The translations under genes and the position numbers were made by a program. A stretch of DNA of 22,214 nucleotides from the IMG/VR virus record IMGVR_UViG_3300028568_000061; one strand, given 5' to 3'. This document shows positions 285 to 22,214 of this stretch, piece by piece (the first letter of the stretch is position 1; every line of letters begins with the position of its first letter). The DNA is from a virus. The notes under the pieces were generated by a model. It did not search any database. It was not told where the DNA came from and saw nothing but the letters and a program-made list of their open reading frames with translations.

Positions 285-806
285 ATGAGTACGTATTCCG
301 ATATCCGGTTGGTGAAAGGCGGCACCGTGGTGGCGTATCTTGCGCCTACTGCACAGATCACACCGGTCTCAAAAAACGATCCGTTCACCGGCACTCTATC
401 CAAAGGCAGAGGCGCAATTGCGCGTGACGTACGGCGGTGGTACTGGGAGGTGACGGTGCAAGGGATATTCGAGCACAGTGACAACCTACCGTCGGATCAC
501 AAAACCGCGCTCCAAAACCTGTTTGGCCTCTCTGAAGTGTCTGCCGAGATGCAGATGCGGAGGATATACCAGTATGCATTAGGCGTTGGCGGCAATTTCG
601 ACCTCTACACACCGCAGGTGTTGTATACCGCGCGCAACGAGACGGAACTCCGGTTTGATCCGGCGTATCCACAGGATCCAATTGTGTTGCCGCAGGTCGT
701 GTTCGACGAGATCCGCGGACCGTATGAAGCCGGCAAGTCACGGATCGAATGGATGCTGAAATTCATCAGCGGGTTTTCGCGAAAAGGCGAAGAGGAGGAA
801 GAATAG
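285..806 (+). CDS. Tail protein, probably distal-tail (Dit)-like
   Basis: 173 aa, between tape measure and hub gene; assignment mainly positional; ends in TAG immediately followed by the next ATG. Confidence 0.5.
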   Translation: MSTYSDIRLVKGGTVVAYLAPTAQITPVSKNDPFTGTLSKGRGAIARDVRRWYWEVTVQGIFEHSDNLPSDHKTALQNLFGLSEVSAEMQMRRIYQYALGVGGNFDLYTPQVLYTARNETELRFDPAYPQDPIVLPQVVFDEIRGPYEAGKSRIEWMLKFISGFSRKGEEEEE

Positions 807-2160: not shown

Positions 2161-2502
2161 ATGACAGTACTAAACCAAGGTCTCGACGTATACAGAGACC
2201 AGATCAAGGCGGCAATCGCGACAGTGGAGATCGGTACCGGCACCACGCCGGAAACCACGTCCGATACCGCGTTACAGGCGCACCTGATATCGGTGCCGGC
2301 AACGACGTTTGAGAGACCTACTGGCGAGTTTGTCACCAGAGGCCGGCTCACGGCGTCGGAGGCGAACGGTAAACATCTGGCCGAGGTCGGTCTCAAGACG
2401 GCATCGACACTGGTGACGCGAAAAACGTTTGCGCCACTACTGAAAACAGACTTGATAGAGGTAGAGTTTGAAATACTTACACGATTGAGGAACAGGACAT
2501 GA
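2161..2502 (+). CDS. Small tail/baseplate protein, tail-fibre N-terminal-like
   Basis: EIGTGTTPETTSDTAL ... EANGKHLAEVGL ... LKTDLIEVEFEI pattern of tail-fibre/baseplate adaptor proteins; tail-module context. Confidence 0.55.
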   Translation: MTVLNQGLDVYRDQIKAAIATVEIGTGTTPETTSDTALQAHLISVPATTFERPTGEFVTRGRLTASEANGKHLAEVGLKTASTLVTRKTFAPLLKTDLIEVEFEILTRLRNRT

Positions 2503-3356
2503 AAACGTTTCAGGATGGCGATCCGTTATTCGGCGCCATGATGCACGCGATCGCGAATTTGTGGCCGAACGGCACGGCGGTACTATCCGGATGCGCGCCG
2601 ACCGGGTCCTCGACCACGCGGCAGGTGACTGTGGCTGGAGGTACGGTTGTGATCAACGGTACCGTGGTCTCAATATCACAACAGACGAAAACACTTGATG
2701 CGGCGACGTTCGATCGATACGATCTCGTATCTATCAACACTTCCGGCCAGGCGATCGTGACGAAAGGCGTTGATACACGACGTGTACCGCCGGTGCCGGC
2801 TAACAGTGTGCCTATCGCGATCTGTTTGGTCGAGACCGGGCAGACAGCACTTCCTACGGACAGGATCTATGATACGCGGATGGATGCGTTTAGACTGTCT
2901 TCACTTAATATCAATGCAGATAAAAATTGGAACAGAAAAAACATTACAAATCTTGGAAAGATCTCTCCGATTTCGTGGCTTGCTGTTACTGGAAATGACC
3001 CGCTATTAATATCTAAGACCGGTAATCCATCTACTACGGTGTCATTCACACAGCAGGTTGAAAAAGGAAACATAAAGATCGTCGCGTTGGGCGAAGGGGC
3101 TGGTTATTATTATGGGCTCCCCCAAACAAGGGTATTTCATGTATATCTAAATGGTGATGAAATATGGAGCCAATCTCAAGGTCTATCGTGGGATGGAGAA
3201 CAATCTTATTACTCTTCCTTTTCTGCCATAGTTGACGAGGATCTGGTTATCGAGCCCGGGGACGCTCTAACATTATCGGTTACAGGGGTGACCTCATCGG
3301 TAACAATGGAAATCTATGCTACACCGATCGTTGCGCCATATGGGCTTGTAGTGTAA
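2499..3356 (+). CDS. Tail fibre / receptor-binding protein
   Basis: N-terminal VTVAGGTVVING...DRYDLVSINTSG...KG...PPVPANSVPIA anchor domain; LNINADKNW..KNITNLG segment; compositionally distinct beta-rich C-terminus; last gene of the tail module. Confidence 0.6.
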   Translation: MKTFQDGDPLFGAMMHAIANLWPNGTAVLSGCAPTGSSTTRQVTVAGGTVVINGTVVSISQQTKTLDAATFDRYDLVSINTSGQAIVTKGVDTRRVPPVPANSVPIAICLVETGQTALPTDRIYDTRMDAFRLSSLNINADKNWNRKNITNLGKISPISWLAVTGNDPLLISKTGNPSTTVSFTQQVEKGNIKIVALGEGAGYYYGLPQTRVFHVYLNGDEIWSQSQGLSWDGEQSYYSSFSAIVDEDLVIEPGDALTLSVTGVTSSVTMEIYATPIVAPYGLVV

Positions 3357-3728
3357 TTACACCCTCGCCCTTATCTCACTAATTTTTGCGCTCTTAGGAT
3401 ACCCGTCGCCGTAATACCGGATCGTAAACAGCGCGGTCTCTCCTGGATCGAGGTTTTCGATGATGGTTCTGCCGTCGCCGATCATTATTCCATCGGAGTC
3501 GTAAAATTTCACCGCAATACCAATGGCGGTAAACTTCTCATCGTAGTTGTTTCTCACATGGCCTTCGACACCGATGGTATATCTGTCGAGTGGCACTACC
3601 TCGTAATCCAACACCTCGACTACGTCTGCCACCTTGATGGTCTCTGTTGTGACGCATCCTGCCATCACCGCCATCATACCTAATACCGCGATGAGTGCCG
3701 CGATCCAGATCATAGATCTCCTGGTCAT
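3357..3728 (-). CDS. FxLYD-domain lipoprotein (123 aa), possible superinfection-exclusion or cell-surface protein
   Basis: Start re-called at 3728 (MTRRSMIWIAALIAVLGMMAVMAGC = signal peptide plus lipobox Cys); GHVRNN...VKFYDSDG...IENLDPGETALF matches the FxLYD domain pattern; only convincing minus-strand gene. Confidence 0.75.
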   Translation of the reverse strand: MTRRSMIWIAALIAVLGMMAVMAGCVTTETIKVADVVEVLDYEVVPLDRYTIGVEGHVRNNYDEKFTAIGIAVKFYDSDGIMIGDGRTIIENLDPGETALFTIRYYGDGYPKSAKISEIRARV

Positions 3729-3752
3729 GTGTGATAGATAGATGGCCGCCGC

Positions 3753-3964: not shown

Positions 3965-4008
3965 TATATATACACAGAGATCTAATAGATATATTGTAGA
4001 GAGGTGAG
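3965..4008 (+). promoter_or_regulatory. Early promoter copy 1: TATA box, ATCTA-A-TAGAT palindrome and RBS
   Basis: TATATATA 3965-3972; palindrome within the 33-bp repeat; GAGGTGAG before ATG 4013. Confidence 0.7.
3971..4003 (+). repeat. 33-bp direct repeat, copy 1 (TACACAGAGATCTAATAGATATATTGTAGAGAG)
   Basis: Identical to 5195-5227; similarity extends into the flanking TATA and GGTGAG RBS. Confidence 0.95.
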
Positions 4009-4012
4009 AGAG

Positions 4013-4399
4013 ATGGAAGTCACCAAGAGAGAGTTTGAAAAACTGAATGACGAGAAGTATCTCAAACAGAACCCATACGCCTGGACCGAACAACAGAGGA
4101 TGGAGATGAACCGCGCGAAGGCCACATACGCCGAGATTGACGCGCGCGAGAAGCGGATCGTCGTGAAAAACGCGTTCCCGATCAAGGAGACGCTGAAACA
4201 CATGATGTTCAGGTTTGATCCCGCGGAGGGCGGCTGGTACCACCCACTCGGGACCCCGGCGGAAAACAGGCAGATCGTGACAACACTAAAGTCTCTCGGT
4301 GTGGAGACCAGAATGACGATGGACACCGTCCAGCGGACACAGTACCGCGGCGACATGATGGGGCAGGTCTACGATGCCCATGGGCCTGAGAAAGGGTAG
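4013..4399 (+). CDS. Hypothetical early protein; reading frame stays open past TAG to TAA at 4463-4465
   Basis: Start re-called at ATG 4013 after the RBS; KNAFPIKETLK..FRFDP...W motif seen in small phage domains. Confidence 0.75.
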   Translation: MEVTKREFEKLNDEKYLKQNPYAWTEQQRMEMNRAKATYAEIDAREKRIVVKNAFPIKETLKHMMFRFDPAEGGWYHPLGTPAENRQIVTTLKSLGVETRMTMDTVQRTQYRGDMMGQVYDAHGPEKG

Positions 4400-4466
4400 G
4401 CATTAGTGGATGAGGCCGCGCGCAAGGCATTGATCAGGTTTGGTCTGATACAGGAGGTGCAGTAAT

Positions 4467-5186
4467 ATGAACACATCAGAACTGGCATACGAAAAACCCA
4501 CAGAATTACTAGAACCGTCATCAAACCACCGCGGCGCAGTGCCGCGGGACATCCTACTGGTGATCAATTGGCAGGATGGAGAAATATACGCGGAAACCAA
4601 GGATCCTGGAGACCGGTTTATCACCGGCACGCGATGGGCCGGCATCGAGGACGCGTATATCCTGCCGTCGAACGTAAACGCGGCTCTCCTCCGCGAATGG
4701 GTGGAGGAAGAGGTTGTGCCACGCGCGCAACCTCTCGCCGACGCGTTTGAGATTGTGTGTGACGTGAACGGCAACCTGAAAGGCGCGTTTCCGGGAATGG
4801 AAGAGGAGAAATTGGAATTTGATAAGTGGCTGGCCTGCGACGCGGAGCCACCAACACATGGTGGTGGCCTGTGGACTGTCGAAGAGTGGTTGGAGGGCGG
4901 TGTACCGGAGATCACATCGGACCTAACCGACGACGATCTCGTCGATCTCGCGGGCGATATCGTTCGCGAGGCAGAGGAACAGAACGTGGTTTTGATCGGT
5001 GGCGCAGAGGCGGTATTTTACCACCTCTGCGAAATTCTGGACTCTGTTAGGGGTCCGGACACCTACGAGATCCAGGGATACGAGGTGGTTGAGAAAGTCG
5101 CCCGGGCGACCGGGACGACGGCACATGTGTTTGTTCCTGTTTCCTGGGTGGGGAAGAGAGTGAAGATCGTGAGGATAGAACCGTAA
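4467..5186 (+). CDS. Acidic hypothetical protein fused to a C-terminal DUF2080 (AbrB-like) domain
   Basis: RBS GGAGGTG; C-terminus YEIQGYEVVEKVARATGTTAHVFVPVSWVGKRVKIVRIEP matches DUF2080 (PF09853) of methanogens. Confidence 0.75.
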   Translation: MNTSELAYEKPTELLEPSSNHRGAVPRDILLVINWQDGEIYAETKDPGDRFITGTRWAGIEDAYILPSNVNAALLREWVEEEVVPRAQPLADAFEIVCDVNGNLKGAFPGMEEEKLEFDKWLACDAEPPTHGGGLWTVEEWLEGGVPEITSDLTDDDLVDLAGDIVREAEEQNVVLIGGAEAVFYHLCEILDSVRGPDTYEIQGYEVVEKVARATGTTAHVFVPVSWVGKRVKIVRIEP

Positions 5187-5233
5187 AGTATATGTACACA
5201 GAGATCTAATAGATATATTGTAGAGAGAGGTGA
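5185..5233 (+). promoter_or_regulatory. Early promoter copy 2: BRE/TATA, palindrome and RBS
   Basis: AAAGTATATGTA 5185-5196 followed by the 33-bp repeat and GAGGTGAG; ATG at 5242. Confidence 0.7.
5195..5227 (+). repeat. 33-bp direct repeat, copy 2
   Basis: Identical to 3971-4003. Confidence 0.95.
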
Positions 5234-5241
5234 GTAAGAAA

Positions 5242-5670
5242 ATGGAGCAATTAGTAAGATATGTGCGCGCGGGAAAAATCTCGAAGGCGCACGAGGCACT
5301 GAAAATTGAGCTCGACAACCAGAACCTCCACGGTGATGGCGACCTGATAATTGGTGCGCGGGCGGTCCGGGACCTCCTGGAGGACGGCAAGGTCGTGCCG
5401 ATCATGCGCATCGAGACCAGGAATGGTGATGTGGATATTACCGATGCTGGCGATGCCAGTGTTGGTATCACCGGCCGGCGTGTGTATCTCCGGATCGGTG
5501 GCAAACGCTACTCTCTGCCACTCGGTCACGTGCGCCGAGTCGCGGTAGGTACCAAACCGGTCGCAATACTGTATCGGAACGAGGTATACACACCGATCAT
5601 CGACGCCGACCGCGTGCAGGCAGAGGCCGGCGCGCGCAGGATAGATGAAGGCCTGATGAAGGAGTTCTGA
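5242..5670 (+). CDS. Hypothetical protein
   Basis: Start re-called at ATG 5242 downstream of the RBS; 142 aa; coupled to the next gene. Confidence 0.75.
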   Translation: MEQLVRYVRAGKISKAHEALKIELDNQNLHGDGDLIIGARAVRDLLEDGKVVPIMRIETRNGDVDITDAGDASVGITGRRVYLRIGGKRYSLPLGHVRRVAVGTKPVAILYRNEVYTPIIDADRVQAEAGARRIDEGLMKEF

Positions 5671-5672
5671 GT

Positions 5673-5984
5673 ATGATATCAGAAGATGTATGTAGGATGG
5701 TTGACAACGCGGTCGCAGAGAGTTTCGTGGGCGCGACCGTTATATCCGTGTCGCCGGAGACGGATACAGATGGTCGGATCCTATTTAAGAGAATTGTGAT
5801 TCGCCTTCCGGGTGGGCGCAAACTCAGACTCATACCGGATACGCACTGTGGCGATCCGACGATAGTGGCAATAACAGACTCGCGGTTCGGACCGCGAGAA
5901 CTGGACGCATTTGAAGACTACTCACATCTAGACGCTGAACTACGGTGGCATCCGGAACCGCCGGAGCCGTGGGACCGCGAGTAG
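5673..5984 (+). CDS. Hypothetical protein; frame stays open past TAG to TGA at 6114-6116
   Basis: RBS GAAGGAG; ATG 2 nt after the previous stop. Confidence 0.7.
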   Translation: MISEDVCRMVDNAVAESFVGATVISVSPETDTDGRILFKRIVIRLPGGRKLRLIPDTHCGDPTIVAITDSRFGPRELDAFEDYSHLDAELRWHPEPPEPWDRE

Positions 5985-6096
5985 ATCAGATCGACCGCCG
6001 ACCGTAACCACGCGGGCGTGGAGGTGCAAGACCTCCTCGGCGGTATCGTCTCCGATGATGGCGCGACCGGAGGAGGTGGAAAAGAGGTGAGAAAAA

Positions 6097-6339
6097 ATGG
6101 AACCGAAAGTTGTTGAATGGAGGCTGATCCGGAATGGATCAGAGGTACTCGATACTCTGAAACAGGATATCGACGATCTACAGACCAACGGCCGCGGATA
6201 CGTGTTGAACTGGTTGATACCGGAGGAACACGCGGAAGCGGCAGAACGCGGTGAGTGGTGTGAAGAGGGTTTTGTATACCACATCGACACAGACTATTAT
6301 GAGATCGCGTGTTGTGTGATTGACGAAGATGTGGAGTGA
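6097..6339 (+). CDS. Small, very acidic hypothetical protein
   Basis: RBS GAGGTGAG; 21 D/E versus 6 K/R in 80 aa (hand count). Confidence 0.75.
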   Translation: MEPKVVEWRLIRNGSEVLDTLKQDIDDLQTNGRGYVLNWLIPEEHAEAAERGEWCEEGFVYHIDTDYYEIACCVIDEDVE

Positions 6340-7885: not shown

Positions 7886-8637
7886 ACACAAACGACCCTG
7901 TAATGTGGATCGATCATTGGATCACCATCCTACCGGACAGTATAGAAGATGAGATCCGGATCTGGATCGAGGGCTTGTCGCGAGATCGGATCGGATCCCT
8001 GTTGAACACTATTGTGCGTGCGGGTGAGGCGGCCATCGCCGCCTCCTCACCACTTCTGCCATCTATTGGTAATATCTCGGTAGACACGGTCTCGGATACC
8101 ACGCCTGATGTGTCTACTGTCGAGACCGTAGAGACCGTCGAGACTGACCCGAATACTTGCGGCGAAACCGAGACGCCTGGTGGTGAAGAGGTCGCATCGG
8201 ACAGCTCTGGTAACGGCGAGGAGGACGACAACACTCCTCCACCAACCGCCAACGTCGCCGGTCGCCGTGACTGGACACCGAAAGAGGATGCTGTTGTGCG
8301 CGCGGCACCGTCGCCGGCAGTGGCGTACAAGATGTATTACGATGCGTTTCCGCATATCAAGAGGTCAAAGTCGTCTATCAAGTCGCGGTGGTACCGGCTG
8401 GTGCGGTGGGCGGACGAGGATGGCGACCGGATACTTCCACCGCCCGATCTCGATCACTCTGGCCTGCGATACGGTACCAGAGTTGTGATCACCGGTGACG
8501 GAGAATTTGCCGGCGAAACCGGTGTTGTAAAACGCGTGAATGGTGATACCAACGAGGTGTTGGTTGCCATTGATGGTGCACCGGATATGGTGTGGATGCC
8601 GGTCTATGCCGTGACTGTAGATGATGATGGTCTATGA
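7882..8637 (+). CDS. Putative transcription regulator: acidic linker, Myb/SANT-like HTH and C-terminal KOW domain
   Basis: WTPKEDAVV...RSKSSIKSRWYRL (Myb-like) and GTRVVITGDGEFAGETGVVKRVNGDTNEVLV (KOW, NusG/Spt5-like). Confidence 0.6.
   Translation: MNTNDPVMWIDHWITILPDSIEDEIRIWIEGLSRDRIGSLLNTIVRAGEAAIAASSPLLPSIGNISVDTVSDTTPDVSTVETVETVETDPNTCGETETPGGEEVASDSSGNGEEDDNTPPPTANVAGRRDWTPKEDAVVRAAPSPAVAYKMYYDAFPHIKRSKSSIKSRWYRLVRWADEDGDRILPPPDLDHSGLRYGTRVVITGDGEFAGETGVVKRVNGDTNEVLVAIDGAPDMVWMPVYAVTVDDDGL
8119..8145 (+). repeat. 3 x 9-nt tandem repeat encoding VET-VET-VET
   Basis: GTCGAGACC GTAGAGACC GTCGAGACT in the low-complexity linker. Confidence 0.8.
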
Positions 8638-9110
8638 GGCCGATACTATATGTCTGCGGTCCGTACACAGGTACTGACTCGACAGAGACCACGAAAAACG
8701 TCATGACCGCGCGATCATACGCGATCGAGGCATGGCGGCGAGGATGGACTGTGTTCTGTCCGCACCTCAACTCGGCGCATTTTGAACGGTGTATCCCGGA
8801 GATCCGGCACGACGGTTGGATCAATGCGTATCTCGATATCCTGCGGCGACTCGATCCAGATGCCGTCCTCCTGATCGAAGGATGGTCTGGCAGTCCTGGT
8901 GCGGTATTCGAATACACTACCGCACGTGACGAGTTGAGGACTGAGATCCTGGGACCGTTCCACAGTCCTGATGAGATGCCGCGCGCACCGAAACTGTGTC
9001 CTGTGTACCGCCAGGTGCACTACGAAACGGATAGTCGTGACACCTGCGGATCGAGTGATCGGCGGTGTCCGGCAGGCGTGAGTTGTCCGATCAGGAGACG
9101 GTGCCGGTAA
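8634..9110 (+). CDS. DUF4406 / nucleoside 2-deoxyribosyltransferase-like protein with Cys-rich tail
   Basis: LYVCGPYTG ... GWTVFCPHLN ... DAVLLIEGWSGSPGAVFE motif set. Confidence 0.75.
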   Translation: MRPILYVCGPYTGTDSTETTKNVMTARSYAIEAWRRGWTVFCPHLNSAHFERCIPEIRHDGWINAYLDILRRLDPDAVLLIEGWSGSPGAVFEYTTARDELRTEILGPFHSPDEMPRAPKLCPVYRQVHYETDSRDTCGSSDRRCPAGVSCPIRRRCR

Positions 9111-9136
9111 AAAAGGTTTGAAGGAGGTTTAAGAAT

Positions 9137-9847
9137 ATGAGTAAGTACAAACACGAATCCCTAAACTGTCTTGACGGTCTAGAACATAAAACCGGCCCAA
9201 AACTGCATCAGAGGATATATGACGATATCCTAATCAAAGGACTGGAATTCACACATGAACATATGGACGAATTTCGGCCAAACATCAGTTTCCTGCGCGA
9301 CCTGATCGAGATCTCAACCAGATATACCAACGAGGTCGGCAGGTTCAACGACATCTTTGGCGAATGGCTCGAACACAACGACGAGATCAATGTTCGTGCA
9401 GGCCAGTATTTCACGCCGATCGATGTTGTTGACGCGATGATCGAGATCCTTTTCGGTGGCCAGGATCTCGGTCGCCAGGATCCGTGGTTGATCTGCGATC
9501 CTGCGAGTGGTACCGGGAGGTTTATGCTCCGGATCGCCAACTATTTTGACACTCACAATGATGGCGCGCTCAACTTTGTGATCACAAACGTTGACTCTGA
9601 TGGTCGCGCGTTCGTGTATTGTACCGCAAACGCCATCCTAAACGGAATACCTGCGTTCCATATCTATGGAGACAGTCTCAAATTAGAGGTGTGGGACGCG
9701 TTTGTCACGGTACCAGTGGGCCGGTACGCATACTGGTACCGGATCAAACCTGGTGTGGCTCATGACATCCTGATCCAGTTCACCACACCGTTTCCTGACA
9801 TCAAGATGGTGAACCGCGGCACGGATGGCGACGATAATGGAGAATGA
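9137..9847 (+). CDS. N6-adenine MTase (HsdM)-like protein lacking catalytic motif IV
   Basis: GQYFTP (motif X), ICDPASGTGRFM (motif I) and GDSL present; no NPPY/F before the stop. Confidence 0.7.
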   Translation: MSKYKHESLNCLDGLEHKTGPKLHQRIYDDILIKGLEFTHEHMDEFRPNISFLRDLIEISTRYTNEVGRFNDIFGEWLEHNDEINVRAGQYFTPIDVVDAMIEILFGGQDLGRQDPWLICDPASGTGRFMLRIANYFDTHNDGALNFVITNVDSDGRAFVYCTANAILNGIPAFHIYGDSLKLEVWDAFVTVPVGRYAYWYRIKPGVAHDILIQFTTPFPDIKMVNRGTDGDDNGE

Positions 9848-18310: not shown

Positions 18311-18640
18311 ATGACAACATTCCGTGAAAAACTCATCACATGGCTCGCGACACTACTCGGCATCGAATTGCCGGTCCGCGAAACCATTATACCTGCATCG
18401 CCAGTAGAATATGTCACAACACTTGATGACGATCCGCAACACATCTATGTCTGGATCATGCGGCCAGAGGCGTCGGATTCCGCAATGGCCGCCATTGCCG
18501 AAGACTTATCCAGGCGCAACCTCAAGTCACTGCACCTGTTTGTCCGCGAGATTGCAGACGTTCGCAGGATGCTGCCCGGCGAGGCAAAAGAGTATCTGGT
18601 GCCGATCATCGAAAAATACAGGGAGGAAGGATGGCTGTAA
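18311..18640 (+). CDS. Hypothetical protein between terL and portal
   Basis: ATG 18311 after RBS GGAGGTGA; N-terminal amphipathic helix; overlaps the portal start. Confidence 0.65.
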   Translation: MTTFREKLITWLATLLGIELPVRETIIPASPVEYVTTLDDDPQHIYVWIMRPEASDSAMAAIAEDLSRRNLKSLHLFVREIADVRRMLPGEAKEYLVPIIEKYREEGWL

Positions 18641-21201
18641 TTACGCCCGGTCTCGACCGTCGAGGCCTGATGACGTTCAACGGCGTGACAGGCCGGGGTC
18701 GCGGTCCCGCGGGCCAGGACTTTTCATCATCAATATTTTATAATGCGTCGCGTGGCGTGCCGCGATACGAAGATCTACTGACGATCCGCGTCCTCTCACA
18801 GACGCATACGGTATCGGTACCTCTGGATACAATTAAAGGCCAGGTGACCACCACCGAATGGACGGTTGCGCCGACCGTCGACAAACCTACATCCAGACAC
18901 AACGCGGCGTGCGACGAGATCGTTGAATTCCTCGACGGCGGTTTCAACTCCAATCCGTCAACATTTGACAGTCTCTGCAAAGAGTGGTTGAACGACATCC
19001 TCTCTATTGACGCCGGTGTCCTCGAACTGGTCCCGGGCGATGACGGGTTCCTCGCAGAGATATATCCGCGTGACGGCGCGACGTTCACCAAAAATCCTGA
19101 CCGGTACGGCCGTCTGCCACCACCAGGATCTGATACACCTGCGTATTGGCAGGTAGGCGCGCAGGCCGGAGGTGTGTTCCGAGGCACGTCGCTGTGGAAC
19201 AACGAAGGTCTTCCGGCGATGGACAGTCTGATACAACACGACCTCGCGCTGGCAGGTATGCTCGGGTATCGTGCCATCGAGCCGATACCGTTCTCACGCG
19301 ACCAGATCGTGTGGATCGAGGAAAATCCGCAGACGTGGCGTGCATACGGATACAGTCGTATCCAAAAAGTGCAACGCCTGGTCGAGATCCTGATCAACCA
19401 GGACGTTTCCAACCTCAAATATTTCCCGGCCAACGAGGTGCCGGAAGGCGCTCTTAACCTCGTCGAGGCAAACCAGACCGAGATCGAGAGGTTCCGCGAA
19501 TACTGGTCGAGCGAGATCGCCGGGAAACCACACAAAATGCCGATCTTAGGCGCAAAAAACATCCAGTGGATACCGTTCCGCGCATCACCGCGCGAACTCG
19601 AATTCCTGGCATCGCAGGAGTGGTATAACAACCTCGTGTGGATGGCGTTTGGTCTGGCGCCGTCCGAGGTCGGATACGTCCAGGACGTAAACCGGTCGAC
19701 CGCACAGGAGATGGCGGAGGCGGTCTGGCGAAAAACGACGTTGCCTCTCCTCGAACTCCTGCGAAACGCCATCAACAGGTTTATCCTACCGTTCCTCGAA
19801 CAGTACTGGGACGTCGACGGAGAGGTCGAGTTTGTATGGGATCCGCATAATCCGGTGATCGACCGTCAACGCAGACTCGAACAGGAAAACGATCTGAGAC
19901 ATGCACTCACAACGCCGAACCGTGTATTACTCGCACGCGGCGAGGATCCGGTGGCGTGGGGCGACATGCCTCTCACACTCATCGATTCGTTGGCAAGACT
20001 GTATCCGGAATGGTTTGCAGGTGAGATCTGTGGTATCGAGAACGTGCCGGAATCGATCTACGGTGGTAGTATGTTGTTATCGGCGACCAACCCAGTCACC
20101 AAAACCGTGGCAGAGATGGTCAAGGCCGGCCGGCGACCGGATCCAAACGACGAACCGGATGAATGGCGGTCGCGGATAGACGCACTACACCGTCGTGTCC
20201 AAGGCGTGTTTGATGACACTCTCCAAAACCTCCGACAAGTCGTCGAGTCAGTGTTTCCGCAGGAAGTTCCGGACGGTGATGCCGAGTCGGTGGTCGATAT
20301 CGACTCCGTCGTCGATCAGATCAGTATCGCAGACCAACTGATCGCAACCACCGCGGCACCGAGGGCAGACGCGTTTGTCGCCGGTATCGACCGCGAACGC
20401 AAACTCCTCGAGGACGCACTCGAGTCGCGTGTCGGAAAGAGCCTGTACCGCGTCCAGATCACAAAAGAGTTTGATCCGACCAAAACCATCGCCTACAAAC
20501 TCCTCCAGCAACGTGCCGCGCGGAACATGCGTGGTGTCGAGGACAGCGTCAAGGATCTCGTTCGCAACACGCTCACGCGTGTGGTCGAAGACGGCGGCAA
20601 TGTAACTGACGCCTGGCAGGCGTTACAACGTGACGTGCCTGAGATGACCAGTGCGCACGCCAGACTCGTTGCGCGGACCGAGATCCTGGGAGCACAGAGG
20701 TATGGTAAACAGGCACTCGGCGAAGAGGTGGAACACATACTCAAAGGCAAGGTGTGGAGGTCGCGCAAAATTCCTGGCCGAACCAGACCGTGGCACAGTG
20801 TGATGGACGGCGTTACGGTGCCGGTTCGCGAATCGTGGACGGTGCCTGCCGGCGTTGCGCCGAACCAGCCAAAAGACTATCCAAAACAGGCCTACGTTGT
20901 CGGTGAGGATCAACCATACAACTGCATGTGCGACCAGAGGCTTGCACTCGCAGACGATCTACCGGTCTCGGCGCAGGAACTGCGGGCGGTGAAAGATGTA
21001 TCGATTGAACCACTCACAAAACAGGCTGAGATTCTGTTAGATCATGCACTACCTCACGAGTCGTTGCCAGATTGCCTGGCTCGACTGGAGAAAGAGATGT
21101 CGCGAACACAACTCGCGAAACATCTCGGCATCAGCAAAGCCACTCTTTATGAGTGGTTGAGGCAGGCCGACGAACAAACACTTAATACCAAACAGGAGTG
21201 A
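18631..21201 (+). CDS. Portal protein fused to MuF (SPP1 gp7-like) domain and a C-terminal HTH
   Basis: Portal motifs (GYSRIQKV, YFPANEVPEGAL, MAFGLAPSEVG, TTPNRVLLARG); MuF ARLVARTE...KVWRS...RTRPWH..MDG...NCMC; terminal SRTQLAKHLGISKATLYEW. Confidence 0.85.
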   Translation: MAVITPGLDRRGLMTFNGVTGRGRGPAGQDFSSSIFYNASRGVPRYEDLLTIRVLSQTHTVSVPLDTIKGQVTTTEWTVAPTVDKPTSRHNAACDEIVEFLDGGFNSNPSTFDSLCKEWLNDILSIDAGVLELVPGDDGFLAEIYPRDGATFTKNPDRYGRLPPPGSDTPAYWQVGAQAGGVFRGTSLWNNEGLPAMDSLIQHDLALAGMLGYRAIEPIPFSRDQIVWIEENPQTWRAYGYSRIQKVQRLVEILINQDVSNLKYFPANEVPEGALNLVEANQTEIERFREYWSSEIAGKPHKMPILGAKNIQWIPFRASPRELEFLASQEWYNNLVWMAFGLAPSEVGYVQDVNRSTAQEMAEAVWRKTTLPLLELLRNAINRFILPFLEQYWDVDGEVEFVWDPHNPVIDRQRRLEQENDLRHALTTPNRVLLARGEDPVAWGDMPLTLIDSLARLYPEWFAGEICGIENVPESIYGGSMLLSATNPVTKTVAEMVKAGRRPDPNDEPDEWRSRIDALHRRVQGVFDDTLQNLRQVVESVFPQEVPDGDAESVVDIDSVVDQISIADQLIATTAAPRADAFVAGIDRERKLLEDALESRVGKSLYRVQITKEFDPTKTIAYKLLQQRAARNMRGVEDSVKDLVRNTLTRVVEDGGNVTDAWQALQRDVPEMTSAHARLVARTEILGAQRYGKQALGEEVEHILKGKVWRSRKIPGRTRPWHSVMDGVTVPVRESWTVPAGVAPNQPKDYPKQAYVVGEDQPYNCMCDQRLALADDLPVSAQELRAVKDVSIEPLTKQAEILLDHALPHESLPDCLARLEKEMSRTQLAKHLGISKATLYEWLRQADEQTLNTKQE

Positions 21202-21210
21202 TACAAAACC

Positions 21211-22214
21211 ATGACAGTATCTGCGTCCGGAGTAATTATCTCCGATCAAACGTATGGCACAACGATCGCCGCAGGCCAGGCGGTATACCTAAAATCTGAT
21301 GGCAAATGGTATCTTACCAAGGCAGACAATCCTGCAACTTCAAATGGTGATCTGGCCATTGCACTGGATTCTGGGTCCGCGGGGACAAAAGGGCGGCTCG
21401 TGAAATTAGGATACGTTGCAAACACGGCATGGAACTTTACGCCGGGTGTACCAATTTACCTATCATCAGCCACAGCCGGCGGACTGACCTCAACCAGACC
21501 GACCGGTATTGGAGCGGTAATACGTGACGTAGGTTCCGCCGCCGACACCACGACCATCTATTTCGAGCCGTCGCCGGCATTGCCACCAGTCGCGGCGGTT
21601 GAAGGTTTAACCGCCAACAAAGGCGATCTGATAGTTGGACTGTCTGGTGCGTGGTCAACGTTGTCGGCATCAGGCGATCCGTGGGCCCAGGTGTACCAAA
21701 ACCCGGCTGATGAAAAAGGCTTGACGTGGCGACCGGAGGTCCCAGATCTCCTTAACCGCATAGTCTATGAGACAGACGGCGCCGGAAAAACTCTGGAAAT
21801 TCACCAGGTCTATATCCCGCGGTTTGTGACGCAAGGGTTGCCTGACGCGAATCTGAACGGTATTCTGTGTGGAGACTTTTGGATCGATAAATATTTGGCC
21901 TGTCAACACGATGCCAGCAACACTTCGCGCGGCACGGTCACACCGAATAGTCCTGGGAACAACGGTGCGGCATCTAAACCCCACGTTGTGCCGTGGACTG
22001 ACATCAACTGGTATAATGCCAAAATAGCAGTTGAGAACCGTGGAGGCGCGAATAACCGCAAGAGTGGTGCATGTACTGCATTGAGTGAGGCAAGTCCGTC
22101 GGCGTTTTACGTTCAAGAGATTTCACACCTAATCGGGAAACGGGTCTATATTACACAAGGTGGCGCGAAATATGTCCGGCGGATCGTTCGAACAGGCGGT
22201 AATGTTGATGCCGA
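21211..22214 (+). CDS. Head fibre/decoration-like protein with a C-type-lectin/FGE-like domain (3' truncated; absent from the ORF track)
   Basis: Hand-translated 334 open codons from ATG 21211: IAAGQAVYLKSDGKWY...FTPGVPIYLS...AGGLT (capsid-cement-like) then VYIPRF...FWIDKY...SKPHVVPWTDINWYNAK (FGE-sulfatase/CLec-like). Confidence 0.7.
   Translation, partial: MTVSASGVIISDQTYGTTIAAGQAVYLKSDGKWYLTKADNPATSNGDLAIALDSGSAGTKGRLVKLGYVANTAWNFTPGVPIYLSSATAGGLTSTRPTGIGAVIRDVGSAADTTTIYFEPSPALPPVAAVEGLTANKGDLIVGLSGAWSTLSASGDPWAQVYQNPADEKGLTWRPEVPDLLNRIVYETDGAGKTLEIHQVYIPRFVTQGLPDANLNGILCGDFWIDKYLACQHDASNTSRGTVTPNSPGNNGAASKPHVVPWTDINWYNAKIAVENRGGANNRKSGACTALSEASPSAFYVQEISHLIGKRVYITQGGAKYVRRIVRTGGNVDA

Follow-up and report, generated by a model that had tools for sequence, protein, structure and literature searches.

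Two amber codons at the start of an early operon

The 22,214-nucleotide (nt) virus record IMGVR_UViG_3300028568_000061 of IMG/VR, analysed here over its whole length and referred to as the window, derives from a tailed archaeal virus. The plus strand of this 22.2-kb contig carries the start of an early operon with two genes, here called gene A (4013-4399) and gene B (5673-5984), each of which ends in an amber (TAG) codon followed by an open frame that runs up to the next gene. A promoter-like repeated sequence lies ahead of this region at ~3965-4008 and is found again at ~5189-5234. The window is a partial genome, and the results on its tRNAs and TAG codons cover these 22.2 kb only. An initial annotation had taken the two TAGs as a sign of sparse or conditional amber decoding in early viral genes. 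Comparison with related loci instead makes it highly probable that the two TAGs are unrelated and involve no changed genetic code: the one at 4397 would be a natural amber nonsense allele, and the one at 5982 the normal stop codon ahead of a structured non-coding spacer. As one TAG appears to be a nonsense mutation of a conserved glutamine codon and the other an ordinary stop, neither gives any sign of TAG decoding.

The observation behind the annotation is accurate in its coordinates and gap sizes, yet it is not statistically special. After the TAG at 4397-4399 the frame stays open for 21 codons to the TAA at 4463-4465, 1 nt ahead of the ATG at 4467, and after the TAG at 5982-5984 for 43 codons to the TGA at 6114-6116, overlapping the ATG at 6097; the corresponding gaps measure 67 and 112 nt. 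Rather than only three genes, five open reading frames (ORFs) in the 35-gene model end in TAG (at 806, 3999, 4399, 5984 and 12399), i.e., 14% of the gene stops. Base composition accounts for this small number, since TAG is the rarest of the 685 stop trinucleotides on the plus strand (121 or 18%, against 152 TAA and 412 TGA); as a gene stop in relatives it is seen in 4 of 27 and 1 of 20 genes. Nor are the open runs after the TAGs unusual for this DNA: across the 35 genes the median post-stop run is 21 codons and 29% of the runs reach 43 codons or more, while for all 685 plus-strand stop trinucleotides at least 21 open codons follow in 42% of cases and at least 43 in 20%. The start of gene A, previously placed at GTG 4004, belongs at ATG 4013, where the protein begins with MEVTK as in its homologues.

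An amber allele of gene A

The features at the first TAG are as follows:

4013-4399, plus strand: gene A, the leading gene after the early promoter; truncated allele with 128 codons up to the amber TAG, with a start matching that of its homologues (MEVTK...)
4397-4399, plus strand: amber codon, by comparison with relatives derived from an ancestral CAG (Gln129) by one C>T change
4400-4465, plus strand: cut-off C-terminal segment of gene A, 21 codons plus TAA; second half of the predicted long C-terminal helix, also holding the ribosome-binding site (RBS) of the next gene
4467-5186, plus strand: next early gene, 239 amino acids (aa); its ATG lies 1 nt past the full-length stop of gene A (TAATATG), and its own RBS, GGAGGTG, at 4452-4458

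Used as a search query, the gene A protein read through the TAG recovered three clusters of 150-151 aa, all of which span the extension and share both a Q at the TAG position and the conserved tail ALVDEAARKALIRFGLIQE. The DNA of 12 contigs from three lineages has CAG at the position of the amber codon in all 12 homologous loci, and in each of these the frame continues to a stop codon that is directly adjacent to the next ATG or 1 nt upstream of it. Two of the loci, L002 and L003, match gene A of the window almost exactly; over 457 nt L002 shows one difference, a C in place of the T at 4397. Between lineages, the ratio of nonsynonymous to synonymous substitution rates (dN/dS) is 0.15-0.27 over the first 19 codons of the tail, compared with ~0.14-0.15 for the gene body, by which measure the tail is coding sequence under purifying selection. 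Further relatives obtained in a HMMER scan, at 41-54% identity, keep the tail to their C-termini, and the Q at the amber site is found in three of four of these and in six of seven family members overall. Additionally, an AlphaFold (AF2) model built from the gene A family alignment (predicted local distance difference test score 93.6) has a long C-terminal helix at residues 113-142, which the amber codon at residue 129 cuts in half. The CAG in 12 of 12 relatives, the conservation of the tail as coding sequence and the helix cut at 129 together identify TAG 4397-4399, on comparative grounds, as a CAG>TAG nonsense change in a gene with a full length of 150 aa. In this respect the initial annotation was partly borne out: the frame past this TAG is real coding sequence, and a nonsense mutation, which it had listed as an alternative, fits the pattern of a sense codon one base away in the closest relatives with a conserved frame onward, this being the signature of such a mutation and not of a reassigned codon. 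Its inference of amber decoding, and the extension that it proposed for gene B, did not hold up (see below).

The closest known kind is, by analogy, the classical amber mutant of phages such as T4 and lambda (am alleles), in which likewise one base turns a Gln CAG into TAG and truncates a protein that is conserved at full length in relatives. Unlike those alleles, the present one occurs in uncultured archaeal-virus populations, where it is the majority allele among the public contigs of its cluster, and it was not selected in a suppressor host; we know of no suppressor for the probable host.

The reading of TAG 4397 as a sequencing or assembly error, or as a minority allele, could appeal to its being a single base and to the C present in near-identical contigs. 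However, the exact 128-aa product (P0027) is encoded on at least 23 contigs, and the 10 amber contigs that were fetched derive from 10 different samples, spanning two contig-name series of the Joint Genome Institute (JGI; Ga02553xx and Ga03772xx) and one assembly of the European Nucleotide Archive; Logan also contains the amber-allele sequence. Gene A and its tail do not vary among the amber contigs. The flanks of these contigs differ in blocks at ~2500-3000, 3250-3750 and 6000-6250, with a 21-nt insertion near 4750 in one of them, and the fetched contigs display six patterns of difference from the window. Differing flanks around an identical gene A imply that the allele spread or recombined among replicating genomes. 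Judged from the assembled contigs, the amber allele is real, and the probability of an error is negligible. Intact alleles of the gene A 90% cluster are found on 9 contigs, including some of the Ga03772xx series, and the sister clusters have no truncated members, which points to a single nonsense event in one sub-lineage.

Two related loci bear on the immediate neighbourhood of the allele. L002 and L003, with the intact CAG and an otherwise identical gene A, diverge from the window in the downstream gene (4467-5186 in the window); in L002 (798-1562) this is a 254-aa variant with a DUF2080 match and 61% identity to that of the window. Such divergence right beside an identical gene A suggests that a recombination boundary lies right where gene A ends; from these sequences the amber allele seems linked to the 239-aa variant of the downstream gene.

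These observations can be accommodated in a simple scenario. One C>T transition would have converted the Gln129 CAG in the first early gene to a stop codon, leaving as main product a 128-aa protein without its last 22 residues, i.e., the second half of the C-terminal helix, while the downstream gene would still be translated via its own ribosome-binding site. The allele circulates in natural virus populations, which implies that the truncated protein is functional enough or dispensable. Alternatively, it might be helped by complementation from intact co-infecting genomes, or by slight readthrough, as any UAG allows a small amount of readthrough by near-cognate tRNA-Gln. A dispensable half-helix, complementation or low-rate readthrough could each explain its success.

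Several points weigh against this interpretation. Within its 90% cluster the amber allele is found on more contigs than the intact alleles (at least 23 versus 9) despite having lost a segment that is conserved family-wide; a simple loss-of-function mutation would not be expected to dominate in this way, which gives some scope to readthrough or complementation. Further, the amber contigs are identical over gene A, and post-mutation selection on the tail is hence not measurable. The amber samples may also be time series from few digesters and thus not fully independent, and, regarding the second TAG, the function assigned to the spacer is only one that we infer.

Two alternatives give the amber codon, or the sequence behind it, a more active role. 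In one, the codon is leaky: near-cognate tRNA-Gln or an unrecognised host suppressor would restore the wild-type 150-aa protein, resulting in two isoforms of 128 and 150 aa. We accord this a small probability; were it true, stop-codon readthrough would be used or exploited by a virus of a methanogen lacking pyrrolysine. In the other, translation would re-initiate at the in-frame GTG 4406, two codons past the TAG and preceded by the purine-rich stretch GAGAAAGGG, so that a separate peptide of 19 residues would supply the C-terminal helix and may associate with the truncated protein. However, this peptide is very short, and the CAG alleles also contain this GTG in the same context, from which it follows that nothing here evolved for such a role; re-initiation is accordingly a highly improbable account. 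Whichever mechanism applies, a helix-cutting amber allele that is nonetheless the commonest allele of the virus in public metagenomes provides a natural case in which to test dispensability, complementation or readthrough among archaeal viruses.

As to what gene A encodes, the confident model of the full-length protein (4013-4465, P0001) consists of two beta-beta-alpha repeats and the long helix. No clear structural match to this fold was obtained, the top Foldseek hit (E = 0.2) being the XPB N-terminal domain and the top VIA-align Z being 5.5; a weak resemblance of the model to this damage-recognition domain of XPB may be noted. Distant sequence matches bear DUF5710 repeats beside a SAP domain or a RepB-type primase domain, and gene A itself falls short of the DUF5710 family. 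These matches offer hints that it could be a DNA-binding early protein.

The stop codon of gene B

5673-5984, plus strand: gene B, 103 aa; ends in a genuine TAG, and its homologues end at the same residue

The situation at the second TAG is quite different. Gene B homologues are likewise 103 aa long with the same final residue, and their stop codon is TAG in one related locus (L014) and TAA in two others (L004 and L015). L015 lacks the spacer altogether, its next ATG lying 12 nt past the gene B TAA, and in L004 the frame after gene B is quite different. Among near-identical strains the changes in the putative extension fall mainly at codon positions 1 and 2 (dN/dS 1.1-2.8), and its frame has gained a TGA in four close-relative contigs, along with a 1-nt indel. 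Hence, TAG 5982-5984 is, as the homologous sequences indicate, the normal stop of a 103-aa protein, and the amber readthrough proposed for gene B finds no counterpart in relatives. Termination at a shared residue, in two cases by TAA, with an extension that shows no conservation at the protein level, is the very outcome that the initial annotation had named as refuting its idea. A 170-aa member of the gene B cluster (P0043), considered as a possible readthrough form, was rejected as such and represents a fusion with an unrelated neighbouring gene.

Wider considerations on TAG decoding

A third TAG allows an independent look at the question:

804-806, plus strand: TAG followed at once by ATG 807 and in frame with the next 449-codon tail-protein ORF (807-2156); genuine stop

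Readthrough joining the ORF at 285-806 to that at 807-2156 was considered as a further candidate and rejected, as the junction is not spanned by any of 21 homologues, and those of ~450 aa begin at the residue of ATG 807.

The proposal under which TAG encodes Gln or pyrrolysine (Pyl) in some early genes, with both gene A and gene B being longer than called, draws its best support from gene A: relatives have Gln, the code-15 residue, at 4397, the frame downstream is real coding sequence, and the amber allele is common in nature. Nevertheless, amber codons that arise by a single base change do so most commonly via CAG>TAG, and the Gln match therefore carries little weight. When all three sites are compared with standard-code relatives, these have CAG at 4397, a stop (TAA or TAG) at 5982 and a true stop at 804, and a lone Gln site is equally predicted by nonsense mutation. 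The gene B extension, as noted above, is non-coding and its homologues stop with TAA. Further, the gene set called under genetic code 11 contains no in-frame TAG in 6,946 codons, as opposed to 74 and 24 in the two other frames. Re-calling with TAG as sense yields little: coding density is 92.0% under table 11 and 93.3% with all five terminal TAGs read through, a gain of 1.3 points.

The decoding machinery is equally elusive. ARAGORN detects no tRNA in the window; a tRNA scan of the related loci L004, L005, L014, L016, L017 and L026 likewise found none, and the related virus Blf4 has one tRNA-Thr only. Across 55 genomes from the family to which Methanoculleus sp. UBA208 belongs, the probable host family, no match to the Pyl-tRNA synthetase PylS (TIGR02367) scores above the model cut-off, whereas the control, Methanosarcina acetivorans, is positive; of the genes for Pyl decoding this search covered PylS, and it was made at the level of the host family. 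In view of all this, decoding of TAG in the early genes is very unlikely.

Known systems of stop-codon reassignment and readthrough provide a useful contrast. In recoded phages, in-frame TAGs are numerous and lie mainly in late genes, coding density rises greatly on recoding, and a suppressor tRNA is often encoded. Here, by contrast, a single in-frame TAG lies in an early gene, coding density is hardly altered (92.0% versus 93.3%) and the window yielded no tRNA; the likeness is limited to the Gln that relatives have at the TAG site. Such code-15 phages, with TAG read as Gln, have been described (bioRxiv 10.1101/2021.08.26.457843). Pyrrolysine decoding of UAG is documented in Methanosarcinales and Methanomassiliicoccales (PMC2933860, PMC4153887), with which the present case shares a methanogen host and a UAG codon; it differs in that PylS stays below cut-off in the 55 genomes of the Methanoculleus family and in that relatives have Gln rather than a Pyl-specific context. 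Programmed readthrough, as in Qbeta A1 and retroviral gag-pol, likewise involves a stop with a selected extension in frame behind it. Relatives in those systems share the stop codon, whereas here it occurs in one sub-lineage only and all others have a sense codon. Indeed, the two genes fall apart in opposite ways, the extension of gene A being conserved without the stop and the stop of gene B without the extension. These results remove a false lead in that the genome needs no alternative genetic code: the gene calls made under table 11 are right, except that gene A should be flagged as a nonsense allele of a 150-aa protein.

A structured spacer downstream of gene B

The spacer between gene B and the next gene comprises the following features:

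5985-6096, plus strand: non-coding spacer from gene B to the next gene; absent in L015, with the extension frame at dN/dS 1.1-2.8 and interrupted by TGA and indel in close relatives
5994-6044, plus strand: conserved three-helix element, with predicted helices P1 (5994-6000/6038-6044), P2 (6002-6005/6012-6015) and P3 (6020-6025/6031-6036) and a GCAA(G) loop closing P3
6049-6076, plus strand: kink-turn (k-turn)-like hairpin, UCUCC-GAU-GA-UGG, loop, CCG-GA-GGAG(G), its fit to the consensus judged by eye
6097-6339, plus strand: next early gene, 80 aa, with the Shine-Dalgarno sequence GAGGTGAG at 6084-6091

A stretch of the spacer is conserved between lineages with compensating changes, for example GGAGGU/ACCUCC versus GGGGGC/GCCUCC and GGGGGU/GCCCCC. 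With the copies that a pattern scan recovered from metagenome contigs added to the loci compared above, there are 21 distinct versions, each of which folds on its own into the same three-helix shape. In these, P1 has the form ACCGCCG/CGGCGG(U/C), P2 is an invariant CCGU/GCGG hairpin with the loop AACCAC, and P3 is a variable stem of 6-7 bp closing a GNRA-like UGCRAN loop. A covariance model (R1) retrieves 40 copies from the fetched metagenome loci, one of them in the window (5991-6047), and no copy in Blf4. In the alignment fitted to this model 92% of the cells pair, compared with ~45% when the partners are slid, and three pairs of P3 have changed on both sides; P1 and P2 hardly vary, and covariation consequently neither confirms nor refutes them. 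The sense RNA is the likely folded strand, since the conserved U.G pairs would be C.A on the other. Folded alone, the spacer of the window is not significantly more stable than its shuffled versions (z = -0.96), and it is therefore the comparative data that back the structure.

In genomic terms, the element is always intergenic, oriented as the neighbouring genes and followed after 25-55 nt by a Shine-Dalgarno sequence and a start codon; the genes downstream of it differ between contigs. The ~51-nt element is present in the window, L004, L014 and L053-L142, with two copies in some contigs (L114, L142 and L118); a scan of viral contigs for the spacer pattern returned nothing. From these regularities the spacer could be a cis-acting RNA element of the downstream cistron. 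The 112 nt past gene B would then constitute a leader of the next gene, with a three-helix junction including a GNRA-like hairpin, followed by the k-turn-like hairpin and the Shine-Dalgarno sequence, and would most likely act at the RNA level on translation, processing or stability of the downstream cistron. No part of the window matches Rfam at gathering thresholds, and for 5940-6130 Rfam yields chance-level matches only (E ~1 or higher), including sub-threshold matches to box C-like small nucleolar RNAs at the hairpin. This conserved and covarying element, absent from Rfam, is a candidate cis-regulatory RNA of methanogen viruses.

The hairpin at 6049-6076 has its own compensating changes, with the C-stem reading GCCCC/GGGGC in L105 and GCUCC/GGAGC in L055. 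By eye, its pattern reads as a k-turn: it shares with the L7Ae-binding k-turn and box C-D RNA motifs a C-stem, a 3-nt bulge, tandem G.A pairs and an NC-stem, in addition to the weak Rfam matches mentioned above. By this analogy it may be a candidate binding site for an L7Ae-type protein. Unlike box C-D RNAs, it lacks a D box and guide regions and scores far below the gathering thresholds, and binding is only putative.

That the spacer might instead encode a small protein, for example from GTG 6018, is suggested by the open frames that exist within it. Against this, it is absent from L015, near-identical strains differ in it by indels and non-synonymous-type changes, and it is base-pairing that is conserved and not a reading frame. 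We consider a spacer protein extremely improbable.

Host, relatives and neighbouring regions

The Methanoculleus virus Blf4/L4768 (PMC8540584) is the nearest named virus and the only named DNA relative of the window: several proteins are 41-73% identical, and a 179-nt stretch is 76.5% identical at the DNA level. Blf4 has no tblastn match to gene A or gene B. The large terminase is closest, at 58% identity, to that of a contig from a metagenome-assembled genome (MAG) of Methanoculleus sp., and one member of the gene B protein cluster is annotated by NCBI as derived from a Methanoculleus MAG. Based on these three sequence relationships, the host of the virus is probably Methanoculleus.

Beyond the metagenome contigs, relatives of the region are scarce. 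Nothing in the nearest virus record (G001, 4.7 kb) matches the region of interest, a search of the viral-contig collection yielded no relatives of gene A or gene B, a scan of genome contigs with the gene A alignment produced no relatives, and Pfam has no family for gene A, gene B or their neighbours.

Two further observations concern gene content around the operon. In the 31.6-kb relative L004, a diversity-generating retroelement (bAvd plus an RVT_1 reverse transcriptase, at 8110-9744) is positioned directly upstream of the gene A homologue; the corresponding place in the window (2161-3356) is occupied by two genes with no reverse transcriptase signature. At the other end, window positions 18631-22212 encode an 856-aa fusion of portal and Mu-F-like domains with a C-terminal helix-turn-helix, directly after which comes an ORF resembling Blf4 (gp27) and L004 tail proteins, with no capsid genes in between before the contig ends. 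This layout reflects either an unusual gene order or an assembly join.

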